Shown: positions 553 to 31,703 of the stretch, piece after piece | How the letters are laid out: every line of letters starts with the position of its first letter | Position numbering within the stretch: position 1 is the stretch's first letter | Assembly: GCA_964474475.1 (NCBI GenBank) | Contig: CAYYTD010000002.1 | Location: 1 to 32,747 of the forward strand | Origin: an uncultured Oscillospiraceae bacterium | Lineage (GTDB): Bacteria; Bacillota; Clostridia; Christensenellales; CAG-314 | Length of the DNA: 32,747 bases | Direction: 5' to 3' | Program-made: the position numbers and the translations under genes | Notes under the pieces: generated by a model | Told to the model about the DNA's origin: nothing | The model's database searches: none | The model's input: only the letters and a program-made list of their open reading frames with translations

Positions 553-861
553 CTTGAGCGAGAGGAAGTAATTTCTTCGTCGCAGTAGGTTAAGTGAATG
601 GAGCACTCCGTTCCACTCACCACACTGGCGGAAAACACCTCCCTGCGATTGACTGTCAAGCGCAACGCCACCTTTGTGCAACGGTTGCTTTACTTTCACG
701 GTTCAATTTGTCCCTCTTCCAACCGACTTTGTCGGAGACAATGCGAATGGTGCACAGGCAAGGCAACAATTGAGCAAAAATAGCCGTTGCAATTGAAAGC
801 ACATGTAACCCAACCGTCAGGAAAGGACCATTCTCAAATAAATACAAGGAGAATTAGTAAC

Positions 862-2610
862 ATGAACAACAGCAAAAAACGCGGCTTTACTATCGTAGAG
901 TTAGTAATAGTTATTGCCGTTATTGCAATTCTTGCAGGCGTGCTTATTCCCACCTTTTCAAGTGTTGTAAACAAGGCAAATCAAGCTAACGATACCGTTC
1001 TCATCAAGTCGCTCAATACCTCGCTCAAGTCTGCCGAGGCTCTCAACGGCAAAGCGCCCACCATGCACGACGCCTTGCAAATCGTCAAGGAAGACGGCTA
1101 CGACGTAAGTAAAATCAAGTCCACTGCCAGCGGCAGCCAAATTATGTGGGATAGCGCCAACAACTGCTTCGTGTACGTAAAAGAGGGTGTAATCAACTAC
1201 ATTCCCGATTCCAAAACGGTTACTGCACAAAACTACCAATTGTGGACTATTGTAGAATCTGGCGACCTCAGCACCGAATACAGCAACTACCTTGCAGATG
1301 GTTTTACGGCTACCGGCACTCTTGCAATTACCACCGGCTTGGACGTTGGCAATGTTGAAGGCATTACCGCAATAGAGTACGTGCGCACAAGCGGTTCTGC
1401 TCAAGAAGTAATCATTCGCACCAACTCATCTGCAACGACACTCACCATCAACGCAGCAACGGACACCGTTCATCACTACGGCGCAATTGCCAGCGTAAAC
1501 GTAATTGCCTGCGCACCGAGTTCCTACCACGAAAACGGTCAAGTTAAAGGCAATATTGTAGTGGAACAAGGCAGAGTAGAAGTTGCCGCAAACGCAACAG
1601 TAAGCGGCGCAGTTTTGGTAACCGGCAATAGCGTTAAAGTAGACGTAAAGAACGACACGACCAAAGTTAACGTTAAGTCTAGCGTTACTCTACCCGAAGG
1701 CTCTGTTTCCGGCGTTGAACCTATTAATGCTACTATCGTAACCGACGAAGCTACGTTGAAAGCAGCAGTTGCCTCCGGCGGCACGATTTATCTTGGTGAA
1801 GATATTGTTTACACGAATACGCTTGTCGCTGAAGGTGTTGATATCACATTGAATTTGAATGGTCATAATATTACTTCAACTAAATCGAATGTGGCATTTT
1901 TATCAATTAAAGGTCAGAATACAATGACCAATGTTGTCTTGGAAGGCAACGGAAGTGTTACTGGTTCCGCACAACAAGGTTTGTTGAAAATAAAAAACAC
2001 TAAGTCTCGCTTAACAATTAATGGCGGAGTGTATGAAAACACTTGGACTTCCAACGGTGGCGGATATGTCTTGCATCAAGGATACGAAAAAAACAAGACT
2101 GGCGGAAATGTTATTATCAATAACTGTGAAATGAAATCATATGATGCGACACTGTATTTGGGAAGAAAAGGTACACTTGAAGTAAATGGTGGTAAGTTTG
2201 AGGCGAAAAATAATTTCGTGATTGGTACTTTAGGGGATGCAAACTATGGATCAAACAAAATTATCATAAACGGCGGCACTTTCAATGGAAATATTGAGTC
2301 CACAGGATATATCGCTTGCGGCATCTACATTGCAAATAATGACACGCTTACAGTTAATGGTGGTACGTTCAATATTACCGATGGTGTAGGCATTCTTGTT
2401 CGTGCTGGAAGCGCAACAATCGGTAAGGGCGTTGTAGTTAATCTACTGAATTCCGGCAAGGGTATTACTGAAGGAATGATTGGTGACGTAAAAACCAAAA
2501 TAAGCCCTACGGCGGTTATCGTTGTAGATGCACTGGAAGATGCAACCCCCACCATCACCAACAACTCTGTATATGGCGTTTATGACTCTGATGGCAACGA
2601 AATTAAATAG
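862..2610 (+). CDS. Large modular type IV pilin (582 aa): prepilin class III signal plus a beta-rich stalk plus a beta-helix-like C-terminal module
   Basis: AAGGAG RBS at 846-851 and ATG at 862. The N-terminus MNNSKKRG|FTIVELVIVIAVIAILAGVLIP has the canonical G/F cleavage site, Glu5 and a hydrophobic helix. The C-terminal half carries four [IV]NGGx[FY] repeats (INGGVYEN, VNGGKFEA, INGGTFNG, VNGGTFNI), typical of right-handed parallel beta-helix coils. The track ORF start at 787 lacks an RBS. Confidence 0.85.
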   Translation: MNNSKKRGFTIVELVIVIAVIAILAGVLIPTFSSVVNKANQANDTVLIKSLNTSLKSAEALNGKAPTMHDALQIVKEDGYDVSKIKSTASGSQIMWDSANNCFVYVKEGVINYIPDSKTVTAQNYQLWTIVESGDLSTEYSNYLADGFTATGTLAITTGLDVGNVEGITAIEYVRTSGSAQEVIIRTNSSATTLTINAATDTVHHYGAIASVNVIACAPSSYHENGQVKGNIVVEQGRVEVAANATVSGAVLVTGNSVKVDVKNDTTKVNVKSSVTLPEGSVSGVEPINATIVTDEATLKAAVASGGTIYLGEDIVYTNTLVAEGVDITLNLNGHNITSTKSNVAFLSIKGQNTMTNVVLEGNGSVTGSAQQGLLKIKNTKSRLTINGGVYENTWTSNGGGYVLHQGYEKNKTGGNVIINNCEMKSYDATLYLGRKGTLEVNGGKFEAKNNFVIGTLGDANYGSNKIIINGGTFNGNIESTGYIACGIYIANNDTLTVNGGTFNITDGVGILVRAGSATIGKGVVVNLLNSGKGITEGMIGDVKTKISPTAVIVVDALEDATPTITNNSVYGVYDSDGNEIK

Positions 2611-2735
2611 CAAGATTTAATTTGCAATTTTTTTGTGCAAATAGTCGTAACGCAACGAATTCGTTCAATGGCGAATGGTTTCAATTTGACGGACTATTGC
2701 AAGTTGGCAAAGTTAATTCTCAATAATGGTCACGT

Positions 2736-2764
2736 CCGCTCGCCATTTCGGTGGGCGGATTTTT
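2736..2764 (+). terminator. Rho-independent terminator (near-duplicate of 338-365)
   Basis: CCGCTCGCC (2736-2744) pairs with GGTGGGCGG (2750-2758) as a 9-bp stem with two G-U pairs. ATTTTT follows. Confidence 0.65.
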
Positions 2765-2913
2765 CTACTCTTTTCAAATTAGCCTTATTACGTTTCACCT
2801 TGTCGTTTTTTTGTTTTAATGGTGTTGGCGTTTTCGTGTTTTTTGTTTCTATGTTGAACGGCGGGGTGCTGATTTGTTGGGTGCTTGTGCAAGGTGGGAG
2901 GAACGTCAGCAAA

Positions 2914-2937
2914 TTTCAATTTGCGGTTGTAAGGAAA
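2914..2937 (+). repeat. 24-bp conserved intergenic box, copy 2 (TTTCAATTTGCGGTTGTAAGGAAA)
   Basis: 22/24 identical to 386-409. TTGCGGT (2921-2927) can also pair with ACCGCAA (2942-2948). Confidence 0.6.
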
Positions 2938-2997
2938 TTTTACCGCAACGGTGGCGCTGTAAAATACAAATATGGTCAAATTGTATCAATTTGGCTG

Positions 2998-3026
2998 TTG
3001 ACAGAAACTATGCCGTGTGTTAAAAT
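2998..3026 (+). promoter_or_regulatory. Sigma-A-type promoter for the lipoprotein gene
   Basis: TTGACA at 2998-3003, 17-nt spacer, extended -10 TGtTAAAAT at 3018-3026. Confidence 0.6.
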
Positions 3027-3083
3027 GCATTCACAGTGATAAACGCGGCACACGCCGCCAATATTATAAGGGAGGATATCACA

Positions 3084-3527
3084 ATGAAAAAGACAGTAAG
3101 AATTTTTGCTCTTGTTGCGGCGTTGACTTTGTGCCTCGTTGCGCTTACCGCTTGTTCGGACAAGTACGGTGCACTTAAGAGCGCATTTGAAAAAGAAGGT
3201 TTCAAAGAAAACCAAGTTGTAGAAGGCGTTGCTGAACAAATTAAGCAAGACCTTGAAAAACAAGAACTTGAAGTTAACATTCACGTTCTCACCAAGGGCG
3301 TTGGCGCTGTTGCAATTATTGAGTTTACTGCAACCGAAGAATTGGCACAAGCCATCAAGGACAGCAACACTTTGCAAGGCTTTATTAAAGACGTGCAAGA
3401 AAGCGAAGATGCAAACGAATTTTACAACAAGCTTGTAGAAGCAGGCTATGCAAAAGGCAACTGCTTGTGCATTCCCCTCACCGTTAAGGCATCCACAATG
3501 ACGGAAATCGTAAAATCCGTAAAGTAA
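3084..3527 (+). CDS. Small lipoprotein of unknown function (147 aa)
   Basis: GGAGG RBS at 3071-3075 and ATG at 3084. Signal peptide MKKTVRIFALVAALTLCLVALTAC with lipobox LTAC. It has its own promoter and terminator. Confidence 0.8.
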   Translation: MKKTVRIFALVAALTLCLVALTACSDKYGALKSAFEKEGFKENQVVEGVAEQIKQDLEKQELEVNIHVLTKGVGAVAIIEFTATEELAQAIKDSNTLQGFIKDVQESEDANEFYNKLVEAGYAKGNCLCIPLTVKASTMTEIVKSVK

Positions 3528-3539
3528 TTAACCACAACA

Positions 3540-3575
3540 AAGAACCGCAAGGAAACGCCCTTGCGGTTCTTTTTG
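3540..3575 (+). terminator. Rho-independent terminator
   Basis: GAACCGCAAGG (3542-3552) pairs with CCTTGCGGTTC (3559-3569) as a perfect 11-bp stem. A T5 run follows. Confidence 0.85.
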
Positions 3576-3609
3576 CTATTTGCAATAGTGCAATTTGTCA
3601 CCACGCTTC

Positions 3610-3656
3610 GCCAACAAATTGCATTAAGCTTTGCCAACAAATTTTGCCAACAAATT
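3610..3656 (+). repeat. Three direct copies of GCCAACAAATT
   Basis: Copies at 3610-3620, 3633-3643 and 3646-3656. The first and third extend to GCCAACAAATTGCATT. The third overlaps the -35 element. Confidence 0.8.
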
Positions 3657-3683
3657 GCATTTTGTATTTGTATATGGTATAAT
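3655..3683 (+). promoter_or_regulatory. Promoter of the minor-pilin/assembly operon
   Basis: TTGCAT at 3655-3660, 17-nt spacer, extended -10 TGgTATAAT at 3675-3683. Confidence 0.55.
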
Positions 3684-3807
3684 TAACTATTATATGTGTG
3701 TACGTGTACCCTTTTGGCGCATTTTGCTGCCAAAAGCAAACGGTTGGCTTTGCCATTTCCCTTTTGAAGACAAAAGCCTACGCACAAATTTGCAAGGAGG
3801 AAAGGCT

Positions 3808-4335
3808 GTGCGAAAGAAACGTAGCGGAGTGACGCTGTTGGAAATTACCATAGTTATGGCGGTTACTGCAATAGTGGTTACCGGCGTGGTGTCCTTGTGC
3901 GTTTCGGTGCAGGGCGTTGCCGCACGAACCAACGAAGTTACCGATGCCATTGCATCTCTTACCGACGTGCGCGACATGGCAACTAAGTGGATTGCCCACT
4001 TTGACGGTTTGCCGGGTGCAACAGTTACTGCCCTTGCAGATAGTGCCGAAAGCGGCGAACCATCGGAGGAAAGCAACAAAACGATACTTCGTGCCACGGT
4101 GGAAGGGAACAATTACGACTTCTACTTGGACAAATCTGCAAAAAAATTTGTTGCCCAGTACGAAGGCAAAACGCTTTACGCCAATGCCAACACAGTCATC
4201 TTTTTGGGCTTCGACTGCCGCACGAGCGACAACTTGATTGTGTGCAGCGTAACTTACACCCTTACCAAAAGCAATGGCAAGCTTAGCGTAGAAGAAACGA
4301 GCTTTGTAATTGCCGCAAGAGGAGGCACACAATGA
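3808..4335 (+). CDS. Type IV minor pilin / pseudopilin (175 aa)
   Basis: GTG start at 3808, preceded by AAGGAGG at 3794-3800. N-terminus VRKKRSG|VTLLEITIVMAVTAIVV has the prepilin cleavage motif with Glu5. The upstream part of track ORF 3631.. has no RBS. Confidence 0.8.
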   Translation: MRKKRSGVTLLEITIVMAVTAIVVTGVVSLCVSVQGVAARTNEVTDAIASLTDVRDMATKWIAHFDGLPGATVTALADSAESGEPSEESNKTILRATVEGNNYDFYLDKSAKKFVAQYEGKTLYANANTVIFLGFDCRTSDNLIVCSVTYTLTKSNGKLSVEETSFVIAARGGTQ

Positions 4336-4715
4336 AAAGGCGCGGTGTAACTCTTGTTGAAACGGTAATAGCGATGTTTTTGATAACGGTGCTTACGGCA
4401 GGCGCCTTTACGCTGTGTTCTACTGCGGTGGTGCGTGTAGACCGTGTTGAAAAGCAATTTAGGGCACAATCGGCATGCAAGGACGTGATTGAATGCTACA
4501 AGGTGACGGAAAGCGTTTCGACAGAACTTGAAAACAAATTGAAGATAGTTAACTCCAACGCAAAATTGGCGGAAAGCGGCTACGTACTGACCTACGCCGA
4601 CTTTAACGTGGTGGCATCGTTAAGCGAAGACAAACACACTCTGACGGTGGTTGCCACCGATTTTAGCGGTGACGAGCTGTGCAAAACTTCCTATTTTAAG
4701 GGAGGTGCGGCATGA
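4332..4715 (+). CDS. Type IV minor pilin / pseudopilin (127 aa)
   Basis: N-terminus MKRRG|VTLVETVIAMFLITVL. ATGA start/stop overlap with the upstream gene. Confidence 0.8.
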   Translation: MKRRGVTLVETVIAMFLITVLTAGAFTLCSTAVVRVDRVEKQFRAQSACKDVIECYKVTESVSTELENKLKIVNSNAKLAESGYVLTYADFNVVASLSEDKHTLTVVATDFSGDELCKTSYFKGGAA

Positions 4716-5218
4716 CGAAACTACGCGGCAAGCGCGGAATGGCAATGATGATGGTCATCGTTGCAATGGTAATTCTCAGCTCATTTGGCGTGCTTATTAC
4801 CACTTGCGCAGTCAAAATGCATTCGGACGTTGCGCGGTACGTAAAAAACACCGAAAATTGCGACGCCATGGGCGAATACTTTTTGAGCAAGGCAAATAGT
4901 CTTACAGATTTTTCCAACGAAACGAGCGTGGTTGCCAATTTGAAATCGGCATTTTCAAGCAATGCGGCCGATAACCCCTTTGCGGAATACGGCGTTAACC
5001 CCGCAGCGAATGCCGAGGGGGAATTTCCTGTAAAACGGGCGCAGATAAGTGCAAAATGCGATGGTGGCTCAACCGCAGTTATGTTAAACGTCTATGCGGC
5101 GGATTCGGTAAAACTTCAGGTTGTGGCACGCAAAAGCGGCACGGAAAAATTTACAATTTTAGTTTGGAGTTACGACGAGGTCGTAACGGATATTGAAACC
5201 GTCACGTTGCCGAGTTGA
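4712..5218 (+). CDS. Pilin-like protein lacking Glu5 (PilX/GspK/ComGG-like, 168 aa)
   Basis: N-terminus MTKLRGKRG|MAMMMVIVAMVILSSFGVL. ATGA overlap with the upstream gene. Confidence 0.65.
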   Translation: MTKLRGKRGMAMMMVIVAMVILSSFGVLITTCAVKMHSDVARYVKNTENCDAMGEYFLSKANSLTDFSNETSVVANLKSAFSSNAADNPFAEYGVNPAANAEGEFPVKRAQISAKCDGGSTAVMLNVYAADSVKLQVVARKSGTEKFTILVWSYDEVVTDIETVTLPS

Positions 5219-5240
5219 CGGACGGTTTGGAGGAAAAAGG

Positions 5241-6482
5241 ATGGCATTAGTACCCGAAAAAAGAAATACGGTGATAGGCATCGATGCGCAAAGTTCGTCC
5301 ATAGTGTTTTTTACCATGACGGGGGATAACCGCATTACTGCGCAATTGAAAAAAGTTCCGTTTAAGGGCACCTTGTACGATGAAAGCTTTTACGACACTT
5401 TGGCTACGGAAATTGCCGAGTATCTAAAGCAAAACCCCGTGCGCCAGCCCACGTCTTTTGCTGTGGTGGTTACGGATAACGCCGTAATTACGGACACCTT
5501 TGCCGTGCCGTCGATAGGCAGGAAGGGCATGGAACAGGCGTTTAAGATGGCTGTGGAAAACATGTACGTAAACGCATCCGACTTGGAAATTAACAAGGTT
5601 TTGGCATATTCCAACCGTCAAAGCGCAACCTATTCCGTAACGATGATGCAAAAAAACGTAATTGCGGGCATCACGCGTGCTTTTAACGCAAACAAAATAT
5701 CCCCGCAGTTTATTACTTTTCCGTACAACGGACAAGCCAACGCGGTTACCAAGTTGCGCCCCAAGTTCAAGAGGTCCTCTTACCTGTTTGCCGACGTCAA
5801 GGAGGGCTACACGCGCCTTTGCTTCATCGTAAAGGGACGTGCCGTTGGCGGAACTGTGTTGCCCTTTGGCTACGAAATACTAAGCAACAAACGCGTTGTT
5901 GCCGAAGACATGCTTTTCGACCATTCTTTGGGAGAGATTACCGTTCTTAATGCCCATGAAAAGGCAAAGGACAAGGCAATGACCGTCTTCCACGAAGACG
6001 CCCAAGGCGATGAGGACGAATTGCAAACGGCCGAGACGGAACAGGAAGAAAACGTATTTGCCGACTTTGAAGATGAAGAGGGTGTGCAGCAAGAGGGCGC
6101 CAACACGGTGCTGTTGCAACAGCAGGCAGGCAAGGCGTATCGCAAAACCGCCCGTAAGCTTCCCAAATTTATGATTAAACCTACGCCGACGGACGAGCAG
6201 GGCTTCACCTACGAAAATTTTTGCATCATTGCCAAGTGGATTTTGCTGTATTTGCGTGGCAACGAAAGCATCACTTCCCAAGGCGAGCCGGAGTTCGTGT
6301 TGGTAAACGTTCCTCACAGGTTTGAATATTTGTTTGAAATGATCAATCGTCACAAGGAAGAAAACGGAATTGAATTCGTTTCTTTCGATCCGGCAATAGA
6401 AGACAGCGCCGACGTAACCTCTAACCTTGAGTTTTTTGGCGGTTTCTATAGCAAAAAGGTCAACCCGACCAACTTATTTTAG
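5241..6482 (+). CDS. pilM: PilM-like actin-fold pilus assembly protein with an acidic insertion (413 aa)
   Basis: GGAGG RBS at 5229-5233 and ATG at 5241. VIGIDAQSSSIV resembles the PilM phosphate-1 motif, and ADVKEGYTRLCFIVKGRAVGG resembles the second nucleotide-binding motif. It sits where PilM is expected in the operon. An acidic stretch lies at ~5991-6100. Confidence 0.6.
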   Translation: MALVPEKRNTVIGIDAQSSSIVFFTMTGDNRITAQLKKVPFKGTLYDESFYDTLATEIAEYLKQNPVRQPTSFAVVVTDNAVITDTFAVPSIGRKGMEQAFKMAVENMYVNASDLEINKVLAYSNRQSATYSVTMMQKNVIAGITRAFNANKISPQFITFPYNGQANAVTKLRPKFKRSSYLFADVKEGYTRLCFIVKGRAVGGTVLPFGYEILSNKRVVAEDMLFDHSLGEITVLNAHEKAKDKAMTVFHEDAQGDEDELQTAETEQEENVFADFEDEEGVQQEGANTVLLQQQAGKAYRKTARKLPKFMIKPTPTDEQGFTYENFCIIAKWILLYLRGNESITSQGEPEFVLVNVPHRFEYLFEMINRHKEENGIEFVSFDPAIEDSADVTSNLEFFGGFYSKKVNPTNLF

Positions 6483-6484
6483 TT

Positions 6485-7276
6485 ATGTTTGAAGTAATTG
6501 TAACTTACGTAATGTGCGGCTTGTTGGGCTTGTGCGTGGGTAGCTTTCTCAACGTGGTTATTTACCGAGTTCCCAACGGAATGAGCTTGGCAAAGCCCTC
6601 CTCTCACTGCCCCAACTGCGGATACGTACTCAAATGGTACGACAATATTCCCGTGTTGTCTTACCTTATTCTTGGTGGCAAATGCCGTGGATGCAAACAG
6701 CACATATCCTTTAGGTACACTTTGGTAGAGCTGCTCAACACTGCGTTGTGGCTGTTGTGCGCGTGGCAATTCGGCTCAAATATTTTCTACTTGATAGTCG
6801 CTTGCCTGTTTTGCTCGGTGCTAATTTGCGTGACCTTTATCGACATCGAACATCAGTACATTTACGACGTGTTTCAGTGGATTTTGCTTGCGCTGGCAGT
6901 GTGCGCCCTGTTTGCCGATTGGAACGGCATTGTGTGGTGGCACAGGTTGATAGGCGGAGGAGTCGGTTTTGCCTTTTTCTTCATCTTTTACGGTGTTGCG
7001 TACTTAATTTACAAGCAAGAGGCAATGGGCTTTGGCGATGTGTTGCTTGCCGGGGTTTGCGGCTTGTTTTTGGGCTGGAAGAACTTCATCGTTTCGGTGA
7101 TAGTGGCAAGCTTGGTAGGCAGCGTAACTTTGCTTGTGTTGAGAGCAAAGCGTAAAGACGACAAAAAAACGGAGTATCCCTTTGCTCCCTTTATTGCTTT
7201 GGGGGCGGCAGTCGCTTTGTTTTTTGGTGATTATATAGTCAGTGCATATACTTCTTTAATCGGCTTGGGCGCGTAA
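6485..7276 (+). CDS. pilD: Prepilin peptidase (A24 family)
   Basis: GSFLNVVIYRVP, CPNCG...CRGC, WYDNIPVLSYL and GFGDV aspartyl-protease motifs. Multiple TM segments. Confidence 0.95.
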   Translation: MFEVIVTYVMCGLLGLCVGSFLNVVIYRVPNGMSLAKPSSHCPNCGYVLKWYDNIPVLSYLILGGKCRGCKQHISFRYTLVELLNTALWLLCAWQFGSNIFYLIVACLFCSVLICVTFIDIEHQYIYDVFQWILLALAVCALFADWNGIVWWHRLIGGGVGFAFFFIFYGVAYLIYKQEAMGFGDVLLAGVCGLFLGWKNFIVSVIVASLVGSVTLLVLRAKRKDDKKTEYPFAPFIALGAAVALFFGDYIVSAYTSLIGLGA

Positions 7277-7319: not shown

Positions 7320-8561
7320 ATGCCAAAGTACAAATATACGGCGGTAAACGTCAAAAAAGAAAAGTTTACAGGCACTTTCATTGCCGAGAACGAACAAGAT
7401 TTGTCCGAACAGCTTGCCAAGCAAAGTCTGTACTTGGTTTCTTGTTCCATCTATTCCGACAAAACGCCCTCTTCGTTTTGGACGCTTGGTTCGGGAAAGG
7501 TGTCTTACGAAGAACTTGCGGCTTTTTGCCGCCAGTTTGCAACCATGCTTAACGCAGGCATAACCATAATAGACAGCTTGGAAAGCCTAATTCAGCAACC
7601 CTTTTCTTCCTTTTTCAAGAAGATAATGGAGCGCGTGTACGAAGACGTCCGTTCGGGCAAGATGCTTGCCGAGGCGGTAGATACGCACAAAAAGGTGTTC
7701 CCCAATTTCTTCCGCAGCATGCTGTACATAGGCGAAGAAAGCGGCAAGTTGGAACAGGTGCTTTTGTCGCTGGCGGATTATTACGAGCGCGATTGCAAGC
7801 TGAAAAAGCAAGTAAAGTCGGCAATGGCGTATCCCATCATGTTGGGCGTTTTGCTCATAGGCATCATTGCCTTAATGATGTTGTTCGTGGTGCCCACATT
7901 CCGCAGCGCCATGGGCAAGATGGATGTTGAGGTTACCGGTTTGACTGCCGTAGTGTACGACATGAGTGACTTTTTCCTTTCCGAATGGCGCACCATCGTG
8001 CTGGTGCTTTTCGTCGTCGTTGGCGGATTGTTGCTTTTTGGCTTGACCAAGAAAGGAAAGTACTTTTACTCTATGCTAAAGGTAAAATTGCCTCTCATCG
8101 GTCCCGTAACTACGGATATGATAACGGCTCGGTTTGCACGCGGATTTGCCTTGTTAATTTCCAGCGGTATGGATGCCGTTGAGGCGTTGAAGGTAATCAA
8201 CGTAGTGTTGGACAATCCCTATATTGAAAAGAAGTTTGCCAATGCGGTTGATTGCGTTTGTCAGGGTATGAGCCTTACCGAGGCGTTCAAGCAACAAAAA
8301 ATGTTTCCCGATATGCTTATCCAAATGATAAGCGTCGGCGAAAAAACCGCCGGCTTGGAACAGGTTTTGAATAGGTCCTTCAACTACTTTGACGACAAAG
8401 CCGAGCGCGCGCTAACTAGTGTTGCGGCAAAAATCCAACCCATCATGATTATCATCATGGGCGTGGTTGTAGGTGCCATGTTCTTGGCAGTATACTCTCC
8501 CATGTTGGACATAATGAACAACATCGGCAACGTTGGCAGTTACGATGTGCCAAACGTGTAG
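7320..8561 (+). CDS. pilC: Type IV pilus platform protein (GspF/PilC family)
   Basis: GAGGA RBS. The T2SS-F repeat signature (ELAAFCRQFATMLNAGITIIDSLESL) is duplicated later as FARGFALLISSGMDAVEAL. Three TM segments. Confidence 0.92.
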   Translation: MPKYKYTAVNVKKEKFTGTFIAENEQDLSEQLAKQSLYLVSCSIYSDKTPSSFWTLGSGKVSYEELAAFCRQFATMLNAGITIIDSLESLIQQPFSSFFKKIMERVYEDVRSGKMLAEAVDTHKKVFPNFFRSMLYIGEESGKLEQVLLSLADYYERDCKLKKQVKSAMAYPIMLGVLLIGIIALMMLFVVPTFRSAMGKMDVEVTGLTAVVYDMSDFFLSEWRTIVLVLFVVVGGLLLFGLTKKGKYFYSMLKVKLPLIGPVTTDMITARFARGFALLISSGMDAVEALKVINVVLDNPYIEKKFANAVDCVCQGMSLTEAFKQQKMFPDMLIQMISVGEKTAGLEQVLNRSFNYFDDKAERALTSVAAKIQPIMIIIMGVVVGAMFLAVYSPMLDIMNNIGNVGSYDVPNV

Positions 8562-8631: not shown

Positions 8632-10323
8632 ATGAATTTGAATTACGAATTATTGTTGTTTTTCGTTTATAGAAAAATAATTAAACGTAAAGACGTAGAG
8701 CCTATTATGGCGGCATGCAAAAAGCTTCAATTACCCGTTGAAACTTACCTGATTGCCAAAGAGTATTGTACCGAAGTTACCGCGCTCGAGGCAATGGCGG
8801 ATTTCTACTGCATGCCCTGTTGCGAATTGGACATGCTCGACATCGACGAGGATTTGTTTGCGCAGTTCGGCTACGATTTCATGAAAAAGCACAAGGTCAT
8901 TCCCGTTTGTCGCAACAAGAAGGGAGTGTTGTTGCTTGCCGTGGCACGTCCGCTCGATTGCAACGCCGTGTCGGCAATCAATTCCCGCTTTACTTGCCCG
9001 TTGGATTTCGTCCTTGTGCCGGCAGTTCAAATAGACAGGCACATCGACTCCATCGTTGCGGTAATTTCCACCTCAACCGCTCTTGACGACCTCAATGCTG
9101 AAAAGGACAAGGAACTGGCAAAGGCAAACAACGCTGGCGACTTTAACGGCGTTGGCAAGGAAGACGACGTAATTAACACTTCCGCAGTGCGCTTGGTCGA
9201 TTCTATCATTCGTGAGGCAATTCCCTACCGCGCAAGCGACATTCACATTGAGCCCTTCGAAAAGGTAGTTAAAGTGCGTTACCGCATCGACGGCGATTTG
9301 CAACCGCGTGCGGAGTTCCCCATCGAAAGTTACGCTGCAATTTGCGCGCGTATTAAAATAATTTCCGGCATCAACATTGCTGAACGCCGCGTTCCGCAAG
9401 ACGGCCGTATCAACATGATCATCGGCGACAAGGAATACGACTTCCGCGTGTCGTCGTTGCCCACCGTTTACGGCGAAAAGTTCGTTATTCGTATTTTGGA
9501 CAAAACTTCCTTCAACTTTACTCGTGCCGACCTTGGCTTTACCGACAGGGAAAACGCCATTGTCGATAAGATTTTGGAGCGTCCTCACGGCATAGTGCTG
9601 CTTACCGGCCCCACCGGTTGCGGAAAGAGCACTACGTTGTACTCCTTCTTGAAGGAAATCAACAAGCCCAACGTAAATATAGTTACGGTTGAAGATCCCG
9701 TGGAATACACCCTGTTTGGAGTAAACCAAACTCAGGTTAACACCAAGGCAAATATGACCTTTGCTTCCGCCCTTCGCTCCATTTTGCGTCAAGACCCTGA
9801 TATTATCATGATAGGCGAAATTCGTGACGAAGAAACGGCGCAAATAGCCATTAGAGCGGCAATTACCGGGCACTTGGTATTTTCTACGTTGCACACCAAC
9901 GACGCTCCCGGCGCAATAGTGCGTTTGGAAGACATGGGCGTAGAAGATTACCTCGTATCCGATGCGTTGGTTGGCGTTATTGCCCAACGTTTGGTCAAGC
10001 GTTTGTGCCCTGCATGCAAAAAGAAGGGCAAAACCACCGCCAAGGAAATGGAATTGCTCGGCATAAAAGAGCCTGTGACGATTTATCGTCCGCAAGGCTG
10101 TCAGTTCTGCAACGAAACGGGCTACAAAGGCCGTATTGCCGTTCACGAAATAATGCATCTCAACGACGAGATGAGACAAGTAATATCCAAAGAAAAGACT
10201 ATTGAAGGATTGAGAAACATCGCTTTACAAAACGGCATGCACACCCTGTGGGATTCCTGCAAGGAGTACGTGTTGGCAGGGGTAACCAGCCTGCAAGAAT
10301 TGGTCTCCCTTTCCGTCGAGTAA
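8632..10323 (+). CDS. pilB: Type IV pilus assembly ATPase (GspE/PilB family)
   Basis: Walker A GPTGCGKST, Asp/His boxes, and tetracysteine CPACKK...CQFCNETGYKGR. N-terminal T2SSE_N-like region. The start could instead be Met26 (8707). Confidence 0.93.
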   Translation: MNLNYELLLFFVYRKIIKRKDVEPIMAACKKLQLPVETYLIAKEYCTEVTALEAMADFYCMPCCELDMLDIDEDLFAQFGYDFMKKHKVIPVCRNKKGVLLLAVARPLDCNAVSAINSRFTCPLDFVLVPAVQIDRHIDSIVAVISTSTALDDLNAEKDKELAKANNAGDFNGVGKEDDVINTSAVRLVDSIIREAIPYRASDIHIEPFEKVVKVRYRIDGDLQPRAEFPIESYAAICARIKIISGINIAERRVPQDGRINMIIGDKEYDFRVSSLPTVYGEKFVIRILDKTSFNFTRADLGFTDRENAIVDKILERPHGIVLLTGPTGCGKSTTLYSFLKEINKPNVNIVTVEDPVEYTLFGVNQTQVNTKANMTFASALRSILRQDPDIIMIGEIRDEETAQIAIRAAITGHLVFSTLHTNDAPGAIVRLEDMGVEDYLVSDALVGVIAQRLVKRLCPACKKKGKTTAKEMELLGIKEPVTIYRPQGCQFCNETGYKGRIAVHEIMHLNDEMRQVISKEKTIEGLRNIALQNGMHTLWDSCKEYVLAGVTSLQELVSLSVE

Positions 10324-10397
10324 CGGAAAAATTTTGGCGGCATTTGCCGCAACCCCCTTTTGGTTGTTAGTTTTCAAGCGAGTACGGAGAAAAATCA

Positions 10398-13148
10398 ATG
10401 GCGTATCAACATTTTTATTCAAGAGTGCCTTCCAAAGTAAGCATGTTCAACAAAGCCGACGGGTTTGATACCTTTGCTTCGTCGTCAATTTTTTCGCGCA
10501 GTTACGTCGACGACGAGCTTGTCCCCGTGCTTAACTATGCCCCCGGCAAGTACGAGGCGTCTTACATTCGCACGGGCAGTTTGCCTCCCGTTTACTGGCG
10601 TTACGTGGGCAGTCAAAGGCAGGTTGTCGTTAGTTGTGTCAGCTTTATGCCTCGTGATTACACCGGTGAGCGTAGCAGCTGGCTAATTCACACCCTCGTG
10701 CCCAACGACGACGAACGCGCCTCAATCAGCCGCGCAACGGACAGGCAAATTATCAATCCCGAATGTTTTACTACGGACATTTCCGGCTTCAAAATCACTT
10801 ACGCCAACGCGTCCCCGATAAAGGATTACCCCGAATTGGCTTATTCGCCTTTGCGCGTTACGGACGTAGAGCAGTTAACTACTCAGTATTCCTCCTCGCA
10901 ATTAAAAAAGTTAATTTACGCTTTGCTTGCCGTTGCTTGTGGCAAGTGCAAGGCGGTTTACATAGGCGCCGGCAAAGATATGCAAACCATTTCGCAAGAG
11001 GCGCTTGCGTTGATGAACAGGCTTTTGCAGGTATTTCCGCACAACGTGCGGGACAGAATACCCTTCATCACTTACACGACGGAGTACAACAAGCTAAATA
11101 CTTTTGCCGTCAAGTTTTTGCCTTCCGATTGCATGACCATGCCGCCAAGCAAAGGCATTCGTTTCGATTTGCCGTCGAAGGAATCGGACGGCATCAAAGA
11201 GGCGGATTTTGCCTCTGCGCAAATGCTTGTAGAGTTCTTTTACAGTTTGCTTGCGGACAAGCCTTTGCGCCTGCGTTTCGTCAAGTACGCTTTGAGAGCG
11301 GCCGAAACGGACAAAACGCTGCAGGAACCCAACTTTAAAAATCTCAACGCCATCGTTACACTTTTCAAGCAGGTATCCAAGGCGTATACCGAAAAGCAAG
11401 TTTTGCCCGACGATGCACGCGTGTTGGAAATGTTTTCCATTTACGAAAAGTATCGCAACATACTTTCGCCAAAGGAAAGATGCACCGTGTACGGAAGTTT
11501 GGAAAGGTACATTAGGTTGCACCAAGCCATTCCGTCGGCAGTCTTCACCAAGGTGAGCAAGCTGTACCCCAAGGAAACGCCTCACGTCAAGTCGTGTGTT
11601 ATGCGCATAATGCTAGAGATGATTCACACAGACATAATGCGCGACAAGCTTTTTGCATTCATCAAGAACAATTTCGATGCCGAAAACGCCCGCGGCAAAT
11701 CCATTATTTGTCGCCACCTCATTAGGGTTTATTACGGCGGATTTTTGCAACATCAAATTCTTTCTTTGCTGGATGGCTGCTTTGCCGAACAGTCGGAGGG
11801 AACGCAGGATTTCGTTTTGGAAAAACTGTTGTTGTCCATTCGCACGCAGGACGTTCGTTTACAGCTATTTGAATTTTTTGAAAATCAATACGGTGTATTT
11901 ACCGAAGAACAAAAGAAAACACTGTACAAAACGTTGCTGTCGTCGTTAGACGAAGCGGACGAATTGAGCGTTGCCGTGGTGCAATTTGTCGACAAGCACG
12001 TTGGCAAAGAGCCCAAGGAAGTATCGCAGTTGGTCGCCGACCAAATAGTGAGTATTTTGGATGCCGAGTGCCGCCGCGAAAACGAATTGATCAAAGTGCT
12101 GTCGGCAAGCAATGGTTTTTGTCTAAACGCCGTCTTGCCTTCTGTCCTTTCGTGGACTTCTCGCAAGGTTTTTGCCAAGTACGTCGACATAGTGTCTTCC
12201 GCCAACGTTGCAAAGGCAACGGAAATGCTGTGCAACTGTTTCGTTGCTGTGCCTTCTCCGTCGGCAGAGGCAGTTAGTGGTTTGAACAGGGCGGTTGATG
12301 CTCTTGCTGGCAAGCAACCTACAGTGGACTTTTTCCGCCTTGCCGATGCCTACTCCAAGGTGAAAAGGTTTGTTTCGGCAAAATCTAACAGCGTGTGGAA
12401 CAAGCTTGCCGATAGGCTTGCCACCGACGTGTTGCAAGTTGCGCTTTGCTCTCGCGTGCTGGATTGTTTTTGCATCAAACCGCAAGTTGGTTACGTAGAA
12501 AAAGCCAGCAAATTTATTGCCGCTAACGAATTTTTACAAAGTGAACCTCTTTCGCAAGCCGTTTGCGCGGCCAAATGTGTTTTGGACGGCGAATTGCCCT
12601 CCGCCAACATGAAAGGTCTGTGCAAGTTGCTCGGCTACAAGCGTGAGCGCGAAAGCTTCGTGCAGTGTCTCGAAGAGATTCTTGCCGATAGCAAAAACAA
12701 AATTTCGGCAGATAAGGACGTGGAGTATCTCGTTGACGTTTGTGCGCTGGTTTCTTTGCTTGGCAAGGGAAGTTTCAACTGGGAGGACGTTTATCGCCTT
12801 TGCTTTGCCGGAACGCAACGCAAATACGAAATTGCCTTCAAAGAGGATGCCAAAAAGCTTGCAAATGCGGCAAAGTATGCTTCGGTAGATGCGCTTGTTC
12901 AAGTGCTTCGCTGCTGTGCGCGTATGCGTGCATCCGATGCTCCGCAGCAGGTTCGCAACGTGGTTATCGGCAACGACAATAATTCGCTGTCCACGCTCGT
13001 CGCAAAATACACTTCTTCCTACGGCAAAGGCATTCTCAAAGAGGTTGCCGATATTTGCGTGGACGTTGCCGACGACGAAGTTATGGCAATCGTCAAGCCT
13101 GCCAAAACGGGAATTTCGGCCTTCTTTGAAAAGCTGTTTAAAAAGTAA
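10398..13148 (+). CDS. Large cytoplasmic protein of unknown function (916 aa): ~250-aa alpha/beta N-domain plus ~650-aa helical region
   Basis: GGAGA RBS at 10386-10390 and ATG at 10398, 75 nt after pilB on the same strand. No TM segment, no P-loop, and no family motif I can name. Confidence 0.75.
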   Translation: MAYQHFYSRVPSKVSMFNKADGFDTFASSSIFSRSYVDDELVPVLNYAPGKYEASYIRTGSLPPVYWRYVGSQRQVVVSCVSFMPRDYTGERSSWLIHTLVPNDDERASISRATDRQIINPECFTTDISGFKITYANASPIKDYPELAYSPLRVTDVEQLTTQYSSSQLKKLIYALLAVACGKCKAVYIGAGKDMQTISQEALALMNRLLQVFPHNVRDRIPFITYTTEYNKLNTFAVKFLPSDCMTMPPSKGIRFDLPSKESDGIKEADFASAQMLVEFFYSLLADKPLRLRFVKYALRAAETDKTLQEPNFKNLNAIVTLFKQVSKAYTEKQVLPDDARVLEMFSIYEKYRNILSPKERCTVYGSLERYIRLHQAIPSAVFTKVSKLYPKETPHVKSCVMRIMLEMIHTDIMRDKLFAFIKNNFDAENARGKSIICRHLIRVYYGGFLQHQILSLLDGCFAEQSEGTQDFVLEKLLLSIRTQDVRLQLFEFFENQYGVFTEEQKKTLYKTLLSSLDEADELSVAVVQFVDKHVGKEPKEVSQLVADQIVSILDAECRRENELIKVLSASNGFCLNAVLPSVLSWTSRKVFAKYVDIVSSANVAKATEMLCNCFVAVPSPSAEAVSGLNRAVDALAGKQPTVDFFRLADAYSKVKRFVSAKSNSVWNKLADRLATDVLQVALCSRVLDCFCIKPQVGYVEKASKFIAANEFLQSEPLSQAVCAAKCVLDGELPSANMKGLCKLLGYKRERESFVQCLEEILADSKNKISADKDVEYLVDVCALVSLLGKGSFNWEDVYRLCFAGTQRKYEIAFKEDAKKLANAAKYASVDALVQVLRCCARMRASDAPQQVRNVVIGNDNNSLSTLVAKYTSSYGKGILKEVADICVDVADDEVMAIVKPAKTGISAFFEKLFKK

Positions 13149-13324: not shown

Positions 13325-13361
13325 AAAATCCCCTCGGAAAGAGTTTTTCCGAGGGGATTTT
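13325..13361. terminator. Bidirectional intrinsic terminator between convergent genes
   Basis: AAAATCCCCTCGGAAA (13325-13340) pairs with TTTCCGAGGGGATTTT (13346-13361) as a perfect 16-bp stem flanked by A/T runs. Confidence 0.85.
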
Positions 13362-16025: not shown

Positions 16026-19000
16026 ATGCGTATTGTCAAATTAGTTGCGGTAGACGCGCAAACGGACGAAAAACAAACCTTCACTTTCGGCACGTCGAGT
16101 AGCGGGAAACCGTTGGTTGCCGCCAAGGGCGGAAGGCTCAATTCCTATTTGGAGTTTTGCTTTACCGACGAGGCGGAAAGCGTAAAAGACGTTGAAGTGG
16201 AGTTTTCCGTAGAGGGGCAACTTTACAGTTTGTCTAAAACTCATACGCAAGAGGGCGTCAAAACTTTGCTCAAAGCCTTGCAGGATGGCAAGTGGAACGT
16301 GGTTGCGCGCGCCAACGCCACCGAATACGTCGAACGGCTCATTGGCGAAAGCGTTGGCGACATGCTCAAACAAGACTTTGTCAACAACGCCGCAGTGGAA
16401 GGTTTTGACGGCAATTTGCTTGCTTTTGAAAAGATAAGGTTGCTTGCCGAAGTGGAACAAACCATTTCGCAATCTTCGCAAGAAGCTCAACGCATGTGGG
16501 ACAGTGCACGCAGCAAGGTTAAGCAGTACGCATCGTCGCAAAACGACGAACCCGTCGTCACGCCGGAGCAAATAGAAGAAATAGAGGTGGAGTTGGAAGA
16601 AATTTCTTCCAAACTTGCAAACGCCACTGCGGAGCTGGCGGACTTAAAGGAACAGTACGCCGCAAGCAGTTTCGTCCAAGACGTTCAGCGTGAGCTTCAA
16701 TCGGCGCAGGAAAAGTATAATTTGCTTATAGGCAAGCAAAACGAAATAGACAAGTTGCGTTCCGCCTTGCGCTTGCGTGAGGATGTCGACGCTTTACTTC
16801 CCAAGGTAAATACTCTCAAAGAGATAATCCGCCAAAAGGACGAATACGAAAAGAAACGTTACGCAGTCACGTCGGAAATAGAGTGGCAGCAAAACGAGTT
16901 GGACGGCATAGAAAAATCGCTTGAAGAAAAGAACAAGCTGTTCGTTGCCACGCAAGACAAGCGCTCGCGCATCGAGGGCATCAACGCCGAACTGACGACC
17001 ATTGCCTCGCTGTACGAAAAGAATCGCAACCTCAACCAACGGTTGACCGACCTGACGGAAAAGGAACAACGTCTTGCGGCGGAAAAGGTAATGTACGCCA
17101 ATAAGCTGGATGCAATCGAAAAATCCCTTGCCGAACTGAATCAAAGCCTTTCGGAATTCAGCATTCCGTCAAAATCGGTGGGAGAGCTGCTCGAGGCGGT
17201 TAGGGTTGACGTAAAAATTGACGAGGTTACGTCGCAGATAGACAAGCTGAACGGCGAAATAGCGGTAAAGGAAAGTCGCATTGCCGAAAAGGAAAGCAAC
17301 CTCGTCGTTCAAGTAAAAAGATTCCGCTCCGTTGCGGAGTTGGACGTGGCAGTAACGCCCATCAAGGCAAAGGATACCATTTTGCAAGTGCTTGACTCCA
17401 AGTACGCCAAGTTGGAAACGGTCAACGCATCGTTGGAAGAAAAACTCATCAACCTTAGGCGCGCGGCGGAAGAGTACAAGTACAAAATTTTGCAAGTAGA
17501 GCAATCGCGTGCGGTTCTGGAGGGGCGCCGCGACAAAGCGCTTTTGGTCAAGCAAGAGGAATTCAAGCGTGAAGTGTTCTTGAATAGCCAAAAGACCTAT
17601 TCCGACGATGCTTCGGGGGTTTTTGCCGTAACGGTAAACTTTAACGATAGCGAAATAGATTCGTTGAATCGTCAAATTGCCGATCGTGTTGCCAAAAAGG
17701 AAGATTATTTGCGCCGTGCAAGCGCGTTAGAAGGTTCCATAAAGGAAATTGCCCGCCACATAGACGTCAACTCTGCCGACATGGCAACGTTGAACAAAGA
17801 AAAGGCCAATATTGTCAACAGGTACAACGAGATTATTTCTCAAAATACCGGTGAAGCGGCGTTTAACTACGTAAAGGCGTTGAGCAGCAACAACGGCACG
17901 CAATACCTGTTGGACGTGCAACAAGAGGCGGTTCGTTCCGAGGCGGAATTGACGGAGGAAAAACGCACTCTCGAAACGCTCAAGAACAAACTATCCTCTC
18001 TCAAATCGCGGTTGAAGTACCTCACCGATACGCAAATGCAATTAGATTCGCCCCAGGCATCCATCGATGCACTCGTTTCTTCAAACGACAAACTGCGCGA
18101 CGAACTTGCAAGCGTGGGCGAAGGGCTTGCATCCGGCTACGAACAGTACAAAGCGGTAGCACGCCAAATGGAAGGCGTCGACTCCAAGTTGGAAGACGTT
18201 CGTAGTGCAATTATTGAAATAACCAAAACGGTAGGCGTAAACGAAGACCTTGTTGAACAGTGCAACAAGCGCGCAAGAGAGCTCGCCGGTTGTGACGACG
18301 TCGAGCAAGCCGTAGCTAACTTCAAGTACGAACTGGGCGACGTAGAAAGCGAACGGCAAATGCTTGTCGAATCCAAACAAAACGTCGAAAAGGAACTGTT
18401 CAAGAAGCGTCTTGAACTGGAAAAAACGCAGTGGCTGTACGACTCGAAGTGTAACGAGTATTCCGACGTTTACGGCGAATTGAAAATGGAATTCGGCTTG
18501 CGCGGACTTGACGTGGAACAAGCCACGGCAATGAACTTTGACGAATCGGTAGACGAAGGCAAAAAAGTCGTTGCCGATTACGACGCAGCCAAAAAGAGTT
18601 TGGCGGAAAAAATCGACAACCTGTATTCCGTCATCAAGAACAAGTCCGTTTCGCCCATCGCATCGGAGCAGCTTTCTGCCAAACAACGAGAAGTCGATTT
18701 TCTTGTAGAAAGGCAAAAGAGGCTGGAAGAGCAACGGCGCAACTATATGCAAAACTACGTCGTTGCAAGTGCTGCCCGCATGAAGGTTACCGTTGCGGCG
18801 GCAGAGGCAAAAACGTTGGAAAGCCTGCGCACAACCATTGGGCACAACCAAGTAATGGGCTTGCTCATTCGCGACAAAGTTAATTCCGTCGTCACTCTTG
18901 CTTCACAGTACTTCAAGACGTTTGCAGGCAAAAACGCAAGTTTCGTGCTGGATGGTTACACCGTTGCGGTAGAGGCGGATGGCGTTAAAACTGCCTACGT

Positions 19001-19187
19001 TGATTTGCCTTTCGACGTCAAAACCGCCGCATACGTCAGCTTGCTGTTGGCTTGCCCGTCTACGGATACCACCGATGGCAGATGGCTCGTTTTCGAAGAA
19101 CGCATCGCAATGGACACTCAAGCATTGGCACAAATGTTGCTTAACATCAGCGATGTTAGCTACGTGGTGGATTACAGCCGCGAATAG
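16026..19187 (+). CDS. Rad50/SbcC/SMC-like long coiled-coil protein with degenerate ATPase motifs (1053 aa)
   Basis: The N-terminus MRIVKL...FGTSSSGKPLV has the SbcC-like head layout, but Walker A ends GKP. About 850 aa of heptad-rich Glu/Lys/Leu/Gln sequence follows. In the C-terminal head, LPFDV replaces LSGGE and LVFEE replaces hhhhDE. Confidence 0.7.
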   Translation: MRIVKLVAVDAQTDEKQTFTFGTSSSGKPLVAAKGGRLNSYLEFCFTDEAESVKDVEVEFSVEGQLYSLSKTHTQEGVKTLLKALQDGKWNVVARANATEYVERLIGESVGDMLKQDFVNNAAVEGFDGNLLAFEKIRLLAEVEQTISQSSQEAQRMWDSARSKVKQYASSQNDEPVVTPEQIEEIEVELEEISSKLANATAELADLKEQYAASSFVQDVQRELQSAQEKYNLLIGKQNEIDKLRSALRLREDVDALLPKVNTLKEIIRQKDEYEKKRYAVTSEIEWQQNELDGIEKSLEEKNKLFVATQDKRSRIEGINAELTTIASLYEKNRNLNQRLTDLTEKEQRLAAEKVMYANKLDAIEKSLAELNQSLSEFSIPSKSVGELLEAVRVDVKIDEVTSQIDKLNGEIAVKESRIAEKESNLVVQVKRFRSVAELDVAVTPIKAKDTILQVLDSKYAKLETVNASLEEKLINLRRAAEEYKYKILQVEQSRAVLEGRRDKALLVKQEEFKREVFLNSQKTYSDDASGVFAVTVNFNDSEIDSLNRQIADRVAKKEDYLRRASALEGSIKEIARHIDVNSADMATLNKEKANIVNRYNEIISQNTGEAAFNYVKALSSNNGTQYLLDVQQEAVRSEAELTEEKRTLETLKNKLSSLKSRLKYLTDTQMQLDSPQASIDALVSSNDKLRDELASVGEGLASGYEQYKAVARQMEGVDSKLEDVRSAIIEITKTVGVNEDLVEQCNKRARELAGCDDVEQAVANFKYELGDVESERQMLVESKQNVEKELFKKRLELEKTQWLYDSKCNEYSDVYGELKMEFGLRGLDVEQATAMNFDESVDEGKKVVADYDAAKKSLAEKIDNLYSVIKNKSVSPIASEQLSAKQREVDFLVERQKRLEEQRRNYMQNYVVASAARMKVTVAAAEAKTLESLRTTIGHNQVMGLLIRDKVNSVVTLASQYFKTFAGKNASFVLDGYTVAVEADGVKTAYVDLPFDVKTAAYVSLLLACPSTDTTDGRWLVFEERIAMDTQALAQMLLNISDVSYVVDYSRE

Positions 19188-26394: not shown

Positions 26395-26407
26395 TTTGCA
26401 TTCACTT

Positions 26408-26434
26408 TGTGCGGCAGGTTGTGTGCCTGCCGTG
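26408..26434 (+). other. Intercistronic stem-loop 1
   Basis: GTGCGGCAGG pairs with CCTGCCGTGC (10 bp including two G-U), 7-nt loop, no T run. Confidence 0.5.
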
Positions 26435-26477
26435 CAAGTAGCAAAGTAAACTTGCCAACAACTTAACAGTTAATGCT

Positions 26478-26518
26478 AATGTGAGCATAGGGACGAATTT
26501 TGTCCCTATGCCTACATT
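26478..26518 (+). other. Intercistronic stem-loop 2
   Basis: Perfect 10-bp core GCATAGGGAC/GTCCCTATGC (26485-26511), extendable to ~17 bp. No T run. Confidence 0.6.
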
Positions 26519-26611
26519 ACGCTTAACGACTTTTCAATTTTTAATAGTATTTTGTCAAGTTCGGACGCGTTTCCGAATTTGGCTAAGTACTACAACAAGG
26601 AGAATACAGCC

Positions 26612-27901: not shown

Positions 27902-27903
27902 TT

Positions 27904-29544: not shown

Positions 29545-29545
29545 T

Positions 29546-31702: not shown

Positions 31703-31703
31703 A

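Follow-up and report, generated by a model that had tools for sequence, protein, structure and literature searches.

What is a large protein with a long helical-repeat region doing at the end of a type IV pilus operon? This question is raised by a stretch of 32,747 nucleotides from an uncultured Oscillospiraceae bacterium (contig CAYYTD010000002.1, hereafter the window), in which the gene for the pilus ATPase PilB is followed by a gene for a protein of 916 residues, here named GAP1L. The original prediction had treated this protein as an orphan and as either a partner or regulator of the pilus motor or part of an unrelated system. The orphan status did not survive, as a protein search retrieved 279 homologues at E ≤ 1e-3, the gene recurs at 77 species loci, and its product exceeds the gathering thresholds of two Pfam models. 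As judged from sequence comparison, GAP1L is a divergent N2-type member of the GAP1 family that lacks the usual GTPase partner at its locus. The novelty lies in a GAP1 clade that has no GTPase partner at the locus, possesses an insert of its own and a predicted membrane-targeting tail, and is situated inside a type IV pilus operon. The central features are the following.

8632 to 10323, + strand: PilB/GspE-type assembly ATPase, 563 aa (T2SSE E 6.7e-137, MshEN; NCBIfam PilB/GspE)
10387 to 10390, + strand: GGAG, ribosome-binding site 7 nt 5′ of the GAP1L ATG (direct sequence reading)
10398 to 13148, + strand: GAP1L gene, 916 codons, ATG at 10398, stop codon at 13146–13148 (open reading frame list and translation)
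10398 to 10721, + strand, aa 1–108: GAP1-N2 domain (Pfam PF20013, E 9.5e-7, 29.4 bits versus a gathering threshold of 24)
10890 to 11129, + strand, aa 165–244: GAP1-M domain (Pfam PF20014, E 2.7e-5, 24.8 bits versus a gathering threshold of 24)

The open reading frame list and the translation bear out a 916-residue frame after pilB on the same strand, the good ribosome-binding site expected for it is the GGAG motif ahead of the ATG, and the naming of the upstream gene as pilB holds in the sense of a PilB/GspE-type ATPase, whose scores stay under the NCBIfam equivalog cut-offs. With a GC content of 0.486 and a GC3 of 0.576, the GAP1L gene matches its neighbours and hence has a native composition.

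The Pfam score of GAP1-M is marginal, and the same region also lies inside the profile–profile match described below. More than 120 of the homologues were found at E < 1e-126; these have a near-constant length of 880–950 aa and nearly all carry both Pfam domains. An exhaustive search with a profile of the N-terminal module (aa 1–265, the N-module) returned only 298 representatives among 1.84 billion proteins. Among these, the members of the GAP1L family stand apart with 224 bits or more, while the next relatives reach at most 127 bits and classic GAP1-N2 proteins appear at about 112 bits and below. Ten relatives with 99–112 bits were scanned, eight of which proved to be classic GAP1-N2/GAP1-M proteins with 135–154 bits on the Pfam models. 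A word-indexed search with the N-module profile found only fragments of the same family; the classic GAP1 proteins were reached by the exhaustive search. The decisive comparison was made with hhalign, which aligned 119 members of the GAP1L family with 30 classic GAP1-N2 proteins at 99.9% probability (E 1.3e-33, 488 columns, aa 1–577). Since this match runs through aa 577, homology extends beyond GAP1-N2 and GAP1-M into the proximal helical region, where the alignment is broken by a family-specific insertion. The Pfam model of the third domain, GAP1-C, matches neither GAP1L nor any of the ten distant relatives, including the eight classic GAP1-N2 proteins. Both groups have the motifs Q..Y[ST]R, G[FY]DT.A.S, D[FY]TG.R[SN] and H..V in common as well as the invariant residues D24, D87, G90 and P214, while D24, T25, D87, T89, E91 and R92 are invariant across the 119 GAP1L homologues. 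A likeness to GAP1-type N-domains, which had originally been suggested as a loose one, is thereby verified by Pfam and hhalign, and the motif quoted in its support (Q..Y[ST] ... GFDT.A.S ... DYTGERS...H.LV) turned out to be the conserved core of the N-domain.

GAP1 (GTPase-associated protein 1) was defined computationally as a conserved partner of DO-GTPases that is usually encoded just downstream of the GTPase (Kaur et al., eLife 2020, PMC7159879). Its N2-type systems feature FNIII-repeat proteins together with tubulin/vWA, HSP70/GrpE or kinase themes (PMC7159879). Often equipped with transmembrane or extracellular extensions, these N2-type systems are read as conflict systems; GAP1 systems in general combine conserved switch-coupling domains with variable sensor parts (PMC7159879). 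Pili are not mentioned in this source paper (PMC7159879), and a full-text literature search yielded no later or experimental work on GAP1 or DO-GTPases. The canonical layout was seen for one classic relative (locus L095), where a Tubulin_2 gene, a gene of no assigned family, a VWA gene, another gene of no assigned family, a DO-GTPase2 gene and GAP1 follow each other. Among the scanned open reading frames of the 32.7-kb window, neither a DO-GTPase (PF19975/PF19993) nor FNIII, tubulin, vWA, HSP70/GrpE or kinase/PP2C partners were found. Searches with full-length GAP1L gave nothing usable in NCBIfam or PDB sequences and no homology to a known Pil, Gsp or Com component in Pfam, NCBIfam or PDB sequences; PADLOC reported only a noise-level Cas8a match (E 0.012).

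Outside the two Pfam domains, the protein is dominated by a solenoid.

11193 to 13097, + strand, aa 266–900 (~640 aa): HEAT/ARM-like alpha-solenoid (AlphaFold2; Foldseek; conservation by region)
11478 to 11987, + strand, aa 361–530: family-specific conserved solenoid core (invariant columns, conservation 0.64, hhalign gap)
13107 to 13145, + strand: C-terminal tail TGISAFFEKLFKK, predicted amphipathic helix resembling the membrane-targeting sequence of MinD

A full-length AlphaFold2 model built from the 119 homologues (pLDDT 92.1, pTM 0.72) places a two-lobed alpha/beta N-module comprising GAP1-N2 and GAP1-M at aa 1–265 (pLDDT 89 and pTM 0.89 when modelled alone), followed by an all-helical region at aa 268–916. 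The division into an N-terminal alpha/beta part and a long helical remainder that had been proposed from the letters is reproduced by this model. Two further statements of the original prediction also stand: there is no transmembrane segment, as the maximum Kyte–Doolittle 19-mer value of only 1.57 is that of a buried helix, and there is no P-loop. The sole Walker-A-like string, AENARGKS at aa 428, varies across the family and was rejected as a Walker-A motif because it is not conserved among homologues.

In Foldseek searches, the best PDB match of the N-module is the type VI secretion protein TagF (9t0n; E 1.4e-4, probability 0.99, 258 columns, TM 0.37/0.32), with 6iz8 and 2qnu as further TagF matches. 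The longin-DENN proteins FLCN/FNIP2 (6nzd, 6ulg, 8dhb; E 3e-4 to 3e-3, TM 0.2–0.27) rank second, with chain 6nzd_H at E 3e-4, and are followed by PAS/LOV domains, which match only the first lobe. The likeness of the modelled N-module to TagF and longin-DENN proteins is best taken as a lead concerning fold class, not as membership. With the full-length model, Foldseek found generic HEAT/ARM solenoids only (TM ≤ 0.25), such as AP-2/AP-3 beta, condensin HEAT subunits and karyopherins; these matches are uninformative and were rejected as a clue to function.

Within the solenoid, the proximal part is common to classic GAP1 proteins and the distal third evolves fast. Mean conservation amounts to 0.67 in GAP1-N2, 0.64 in aa 361–530 and about 0.3 in aa 621–900. 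The conserved block at aa 361–530, which harbors the motifs RY..H.AIP, IHTDIMRDKLF.FIKNNY and RVFYGGFLQ.QIL, largely coincides with the insertion relative to classic GAP1 in the hhalign alignment. This match of conserved block and family-specific insertion makes aa 361–530 the most promising candidate for a partner-binding surface peculiar to this clade.

At the extreme C-terminus, the family has the consensus G[SG]FF[AS]KLFGKK, and an LF-centred basic tail is present in 115 of 119 homologues. AlphaFold2 predicts a helix at aa 906–914 after a low-confidence linker, and the hydrophobic moment of the tail lies in the 93rd percentile within the protein. The tail thus has the defining trait of a MinD-type membrane-targeting sequence, namely a predicted helix, amphipathic and basic, that is conserved at the very end of the protein. 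The membrane-targeting sequence of Escherichia coli MinD is KGFLKRLFGG (PMC5471200); one GAP1L homologue ends in GGFLKRLFKK. GAP1L may hence be attached peripherally to the membrane via its tail.

How firmly is this protein tied to the pilus? Seen from the side of GAP1L, a scan of one genome per species gave the 77 species loci, all from Oscillospirales-type Clostridia (Faecousia, Acutalibacteraceae, Ruminococcus-like bacteria and CAG:448). Where 2 kb or more of upstream sequence were available (69 loci), PilB is encoded directly upstream on the same strand in 67 cases, and in these 67 it is preceded by PilM-like, PilD and PilC genes in constant order and strand. Three loci with shorter upstream sequence also show PilB adjoining GAP1L. 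The median gap between the PilB stop and the GAP1L start is 32 nt. On the 3′ side, the genes are not conserved; only the closest relatives again have a DnaI/DnaB_2 pair there. The pairwise identities of PilB are correlated with those of the GAP1L N-module (r = 0.81, Mantel p = 0.001); the two proteins have therefore descended together and were not reshuffled. The question whether homologues always stand next to pilB thus receives a qualified answer: the core clade has a clear preferred neighbourhood, as pilB adjoins in 67/69, but two loci (L003 and L065) and divergent solo relatives depart from it.

In the first of these exceptions, L003, the GAP1L gene follows glgC/glgD. A convergent DUF2804 gene lies 3′ of GAP1L both there (L003:10001-13962, with glgC/glgD and obg upstream) and in L093 (L093:6815-10689, with PilB upstream), which suggests that GAP1L was detached from the pilus operon by a rearrangement in the lineage of L003. 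The second exception, L065, encodes a 1121-aa paralogue in an operon with three large proteins without Pfam match. This GAP1-N2 paralogue ends a same-strand run (L065:4216-13309; 581, 866 and 409 aa), after which an HTH_3 regulator is encoded. L065 may represent a different, undescribed GAP1-linked system.

Seen from the side of PilB, the association is optional. Nine PilB clusters that are 70–81% identical to the PilB of the window were picked solely for long contigs; all nine of these sister operons have the layout PilM-like-(PilD)-PilC-PilB. GAP1L comes next in four of them (L088, L089, L093 and L094) and does not in five (L085/L086, L087, L090, L091 and L092); it is also absent from L080. 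In a neighbour-joining tree of PilB (without bootstrap values), operons lacking GAP1L are scattered among carriers, and two GAP1L-less operons have a PilB that is 95% identical to that of a carrier. The sharpest case is the comparison of L080 with L030, whose flanks share 87–91% nucleotide identity on both sides: 25 nt in the former (L080:2276-2300) stand against about 2.84 kb in the latter (L030:9950-12787), and this extra segment holds GAP1L alone, i.e. a clean indel. In L080, a gene for an M20-type peptidase lies directly 3′ of PilB. A metagenome scan with PilB yielded only six loci. GAP1L is accordingly accessory and not core, given its absence from five of nine sister operons and the clean L080/L030 indel, and these natural deletions led us to reject the idea of a core assembly component. 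A horizontally mobile cassette was rejected as well because of the native composition and the co-inheritance with PilB. GAP1L is an ancestral accessory of the operon that was repeatedly lost (or relocated).

The boundaries of the gene within the window are consistent with this position.

10337 to 10350, + strand: weak 5-bp GC hairpin GCGGC-AUUU-GCCGC inside the spacer between pilB and GAP1L
13325 to 13361, between the convergent GAP1L and dnaI-like genes: strong bidirectional intrinsic terminator (fold and flanks)

The spacer after the pilB stop at 10323 is short, as had been stated, although its length is 74 nt instead of the 75 nt first given. That it contains only a weak 5-bp hairpin was likewise correct; the spacer folds no better than its shuffles (z = +0.47). 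A terminator function of this hairpin was rejected since the + strand lacks a proper U-tract and folding of the spacer is at shuffle level. The element between GAP1L and the dnaI-like gene is of a different kind, with a fold of -31.4 kcal/mol (z = -8.4) that none of 200 shuffles equalled. It is a perfect hairpin of 16 bp or more with A-run and U-run flanks that probably terminates transcription in both directions, and a simple terminator scan missed it. As this strong terminator divides GAP1L from the convergent dnaI-like gene, GAP1L is the last gene of the operon.

Taken together, GAP1L is a GTPase-less GAP1 member and an optional last gene of a pilus operon, and for this reason a role as an accessory pilus regulator or adaptor appears most likely. 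We put at roughly 0.55 the probability that GAP1L is a cytoplasmic protein that is tethered to the membrane and serves the pilus machine as an accessory adaptor or regulator, with the N-module and/or the insert contacting the machine and the distal solenoid binding an input. The pilus operon of Oscillospirales would have taken in the gene of a GTPase-less N2-type GAP1 protein as an optional addition to its end. The protein would be anchored to the cytoplasmic side of the membrane through its C-terminal amphipathic helix, which resembles that of MinD, and would most likely contact the PilB hexamer (or the cytoplasmic platform formed by PilM and PilC), via the invariant N-module, which has been proposed to read the state of the NTPase in classic GAP1 systems, and/or via the conserved insert specific to the family. 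The fast-evolving distal solenoid could then be the binding site for an input or cargo that varies. GAP1L would modulate the timing or place of pilus extension rather than contribute to pilus building. The part of the original prediction that proposed a partner or regulator of the motor is thus favoured by the gene neighbourhood (PilB upstream in 67/69), but such a partner would not be obligatory, as five of nine sister operons do without it.

Several observations weigh against an accessory role at the pilus. The link of GAP1L to PilB, PilM and PilC is supported by gene neighbourhood, and part of this synteny reflects shared descent because the 77 loci all belong to a single bacterial order. 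A comparison of carriers with non-carriers revealed no PilB residue diagnostic of the presence of GAP1L. Divergent relatives (P0195 and P0184; L003, L065, L078 and L096) occur solo and away from pilB, beside glgCD, ribosomal-protein or NUDIX genes, so that a partner encoded elsewhere is possible. The analogy to an N-module that reads an NTPase is weak, given that PilB is a hexameric secretion-type ATPase, whereas the canonical partner of GAP1 is a TRAFAC GTPase. The structural likeness to TagF and DENN proteins is weak too (TM 0.37), and no sequence-profile match to any PDB chain was obtained. Finally, membrane binding by the tail is predicted from its residues and their conservation.

Three other explanations have to be weighed against an accessory regulator or adaptor. 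GAP1L could be a conflict module (anti-phage or anti-invader) stationed at the pilus motor that senses infection or PilB inhibitors and shuts or guards the machine, with the variable distal solenoid as its sensor; the type IV pilus is a common phage receptor. GAP1 systems have been described as conflict systems (PMC7159879), the distal solenoid evolves fast (conservation of about 0.3 compared with 0.67 for N2), the gene is located at the operon's 3′ edge, and its presence is patchy among very close relatives, including a clean indel. Yet, the window offers no effector domain, DO-GTPase, FNIII, tubulin, vWA or HSP70 partner, PADLOC gave no match beyond noise, and domain scans detected no integrase or mobile-element gene within several kb in the window. 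The native composition and the vertical co-inheritance with the operon are also unlike a mobile island, which leaves a conflict module unlikely. A related and more far-reaching proposal is that the GAP1 module swapped its DO-GTPase for PilB and became a strain-variable, membrane-tethered ‘pilus guard’ or switch, with the N-module reading or gating the nucleotide state of PilB and the distal solenoid as the sensor of a signal that varies and might be pilus-dependent phage or PilB inhibitors encoded by phages. We regard this proposal as speculative and distinctly doubtful.

Alternatively, the function of GAP1L may be unrelated to pili, with the adjacency to pilB being a frozen accident within Oscillospirales and the true partners, e.g. 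an unlinked GTPase, encoded elsewhere. Such an accident would be compatible with the confinement of all loci to one order, with the existence of the operon without GAP1L, and with the solo relatives beside glgCD, ribosomal-protein or NUDIX genes. It is rendered improbable, slightly more so than a conflict module, by the persistence of adjacency, strand and short spacing despite divergence of the protein to about 30% identity and a complete turnover of the downstream flank, by the lack of a notable terminator or promoter between pilB and GAP1L, and by the strong conservation of the family-specific insert in the pil-linked clade. The least credible option is a core structural part of the pilus that, for example, replaces missing PilN/PilO alignment proteins. 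A solenoid of large, scaffold-like build whose tail is predicted to target the membrane would suit this task in an operon in which PilN, PilO and PilT are unrecognised, but otherwise identical operons with a 95% identical PilB exist without GAP1L, and the protein has no transmembrane segment; we consider such a role very improbable. We therefore prefer the explanation that GAP1L regulates the pilus machine, or serves as its adaptor, in an accessory role.

The operon to which GAP1L belongs runs on the + strand in the order pilin, minor pilins, PilM-like protein, PilD, PilC, PilB and GAP1L.

787 to 5218, + strand: pilin genes (N_methyl matches, NCBIfam pilin models)
3631 to 4335, 4332 to 4715 and 4712 to 5218, + strand: minor pilins
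5193 to 6482, + strand: PilM-like protein (named by position and an IGIDxxSS actin-fold-like motif; position conserved in loci)
6485 to 7276, + strand: PilD prepilin peptidase (A24_N_bact, Peptidase_A24)
7320 to 8561, + strand: PilC/GspF platform protein (T2SSF E 8e-60; conserved across loci)

The PilM-like protein, which has a strongly acidic insert at about aa 255–300, gave no match in Pfam, NCBIfam or PDB sequences, and the domain scan of the operon recognised no PilN, PilO or PilT. The first pilin (787–2610, + strand) comprises 607 aa with a prepilin N-methylation motif at aa 29–53, and its C-terminal ~550 aa are repetitive, rich in Gly, Asn, Thr and Val, and match no family. It resembles a ‘modular’ pilin of unusual size, the N-terminus of which recurs in many related loci while the remainder is variable (32–81% identity in the best segment).

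Downstream of GAP1L, the – strand encodes a DnaC/DnaI-like ATPase and a DnaB_2 replication protein. Divergent from this pair is a gene for a 1053-aa protein (16026–19187, + strand) without Pfam match and with a weak NCBIfam likeness to SMC, Rad50 and SbcC coiled coils, which is kept in the closest relatives L001 and L079. Further downstream, the genes at 23311–31702 (+ strand) specify an ABC transporter of the oligopeptide type whose components are unusually long: the SBP_bac_5 protein has 1027 aa, the permeases have 449 and 546 aa, and a protein of 731 aa combines two ABC ATPase domains with oligo_HPY. Long antisense open reading frames on the – strand at 23392–26361 (989 aa), 29573–31807 (744 aa) and 9073–10179 (368 aa) are nested wholly in the SBP_bac_5, ABC-ATPase and pilB genes, respectively. 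The two longest were scanned without family match; these frames are probably non-coding shadows that arise from codon bias.

GAP1 has been known only from comparative genomics published in 2020, and the GAP1L clade sets its module in a well-understood machine. The clade comes without DO-GTPase or effector and occurs in abundant gut Clostridia (Faecousia, Acutalibacteraceae and Ruminococcus-like metagenome-assembled genomes). The link to the pilus, together with natural presence and absence in near-identical operons, makes the function of the GAP1 family testable by simple comparison. If confirmed, the TagF/longin-DENN-like fold and the MinD-like tail, both of which go unmentioned in the source paper, would lead to hypotheses on partner binding and localisation. 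A regulator or adaptor of this kind would, if real, represent a new accessory to the extension motor in monoderm gut anaerobes. Should the protein indeed guard the pilus, this would provide a first tractable handle on GAP1 protein function and tie GAP1 conflict systems structurally to TagF-type repressors and eukaryotic DENN-type NTPase regulators.

How, then, does GAP1L compare with known systems? Regulators of PilB include FimX/PilZ, c-di-GMP binding of the MshE type, and the polarity modules MglA/MglB/SofG of Myxococcus. The concept of a cytoplasmic accessory that controls the activity or placement of the extension ATPase is alike, and searches of Pfam, NCBIfam and PDB sequences revealed no homology of GAP1L to any of these regulators. 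None of them is known to have a GAP1 module or a long solenoid. The pilus cluster of R. flavefaciens differs in its organisation and has PilT, and a literature search found nothing relevant on large genes downstream of pilB in Ruminococcus. Likewise built from two-lobed alpha/beta modules are the longin-DENN proteins FLCN/FNIP, which regulate an NTPase by acting as a Rag GTPase-activating protein. These proteins are eukaryotic and have a small GTPase as partner, and the likeness to GAP1L is one of fold class only. With MinD and FtsA the tail is alike, whereas the rest of GAP1L is unrelated to either protein.

TagF is a cytoplasmic post-translational repressor of the type VI secretion system that binds Fha (PMC5995506). 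Like GAP1L, it is a non-enzymatic cytoplasmic accessory protein encoded within the gene cluster of a membrane nanomachine; it differs by its size of about 220–320 aa, its lack of a solenoid, and its occurrence with another machine in another phylum. A literature search returned nothing relevant on a description of TagF as a DENN protein.

The closest relatives remain the classic GAP1-N2 systems. Common to both are homologous GAP1-N2, GAP1-M and proximal helical regions, a gene placed directly after that of an NTPase, a Firmicute host, and a predicted action near the membrane. In contrast, the NTPase encoded upstream of GAP1L is the secretion ATPase PilB and not a DO-GTPase; FNIII, tubulin, vWA, HSP70 and kinase partners as well as transmembrane or extracellular C-terminal domains are lacking, and the scores on the Pfam models amount to 25–29 bits compared with the 135–154 bits of classic members. 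Conversely, GAP1L alone carries the conserved solenoid insert and the MinD-like tail.

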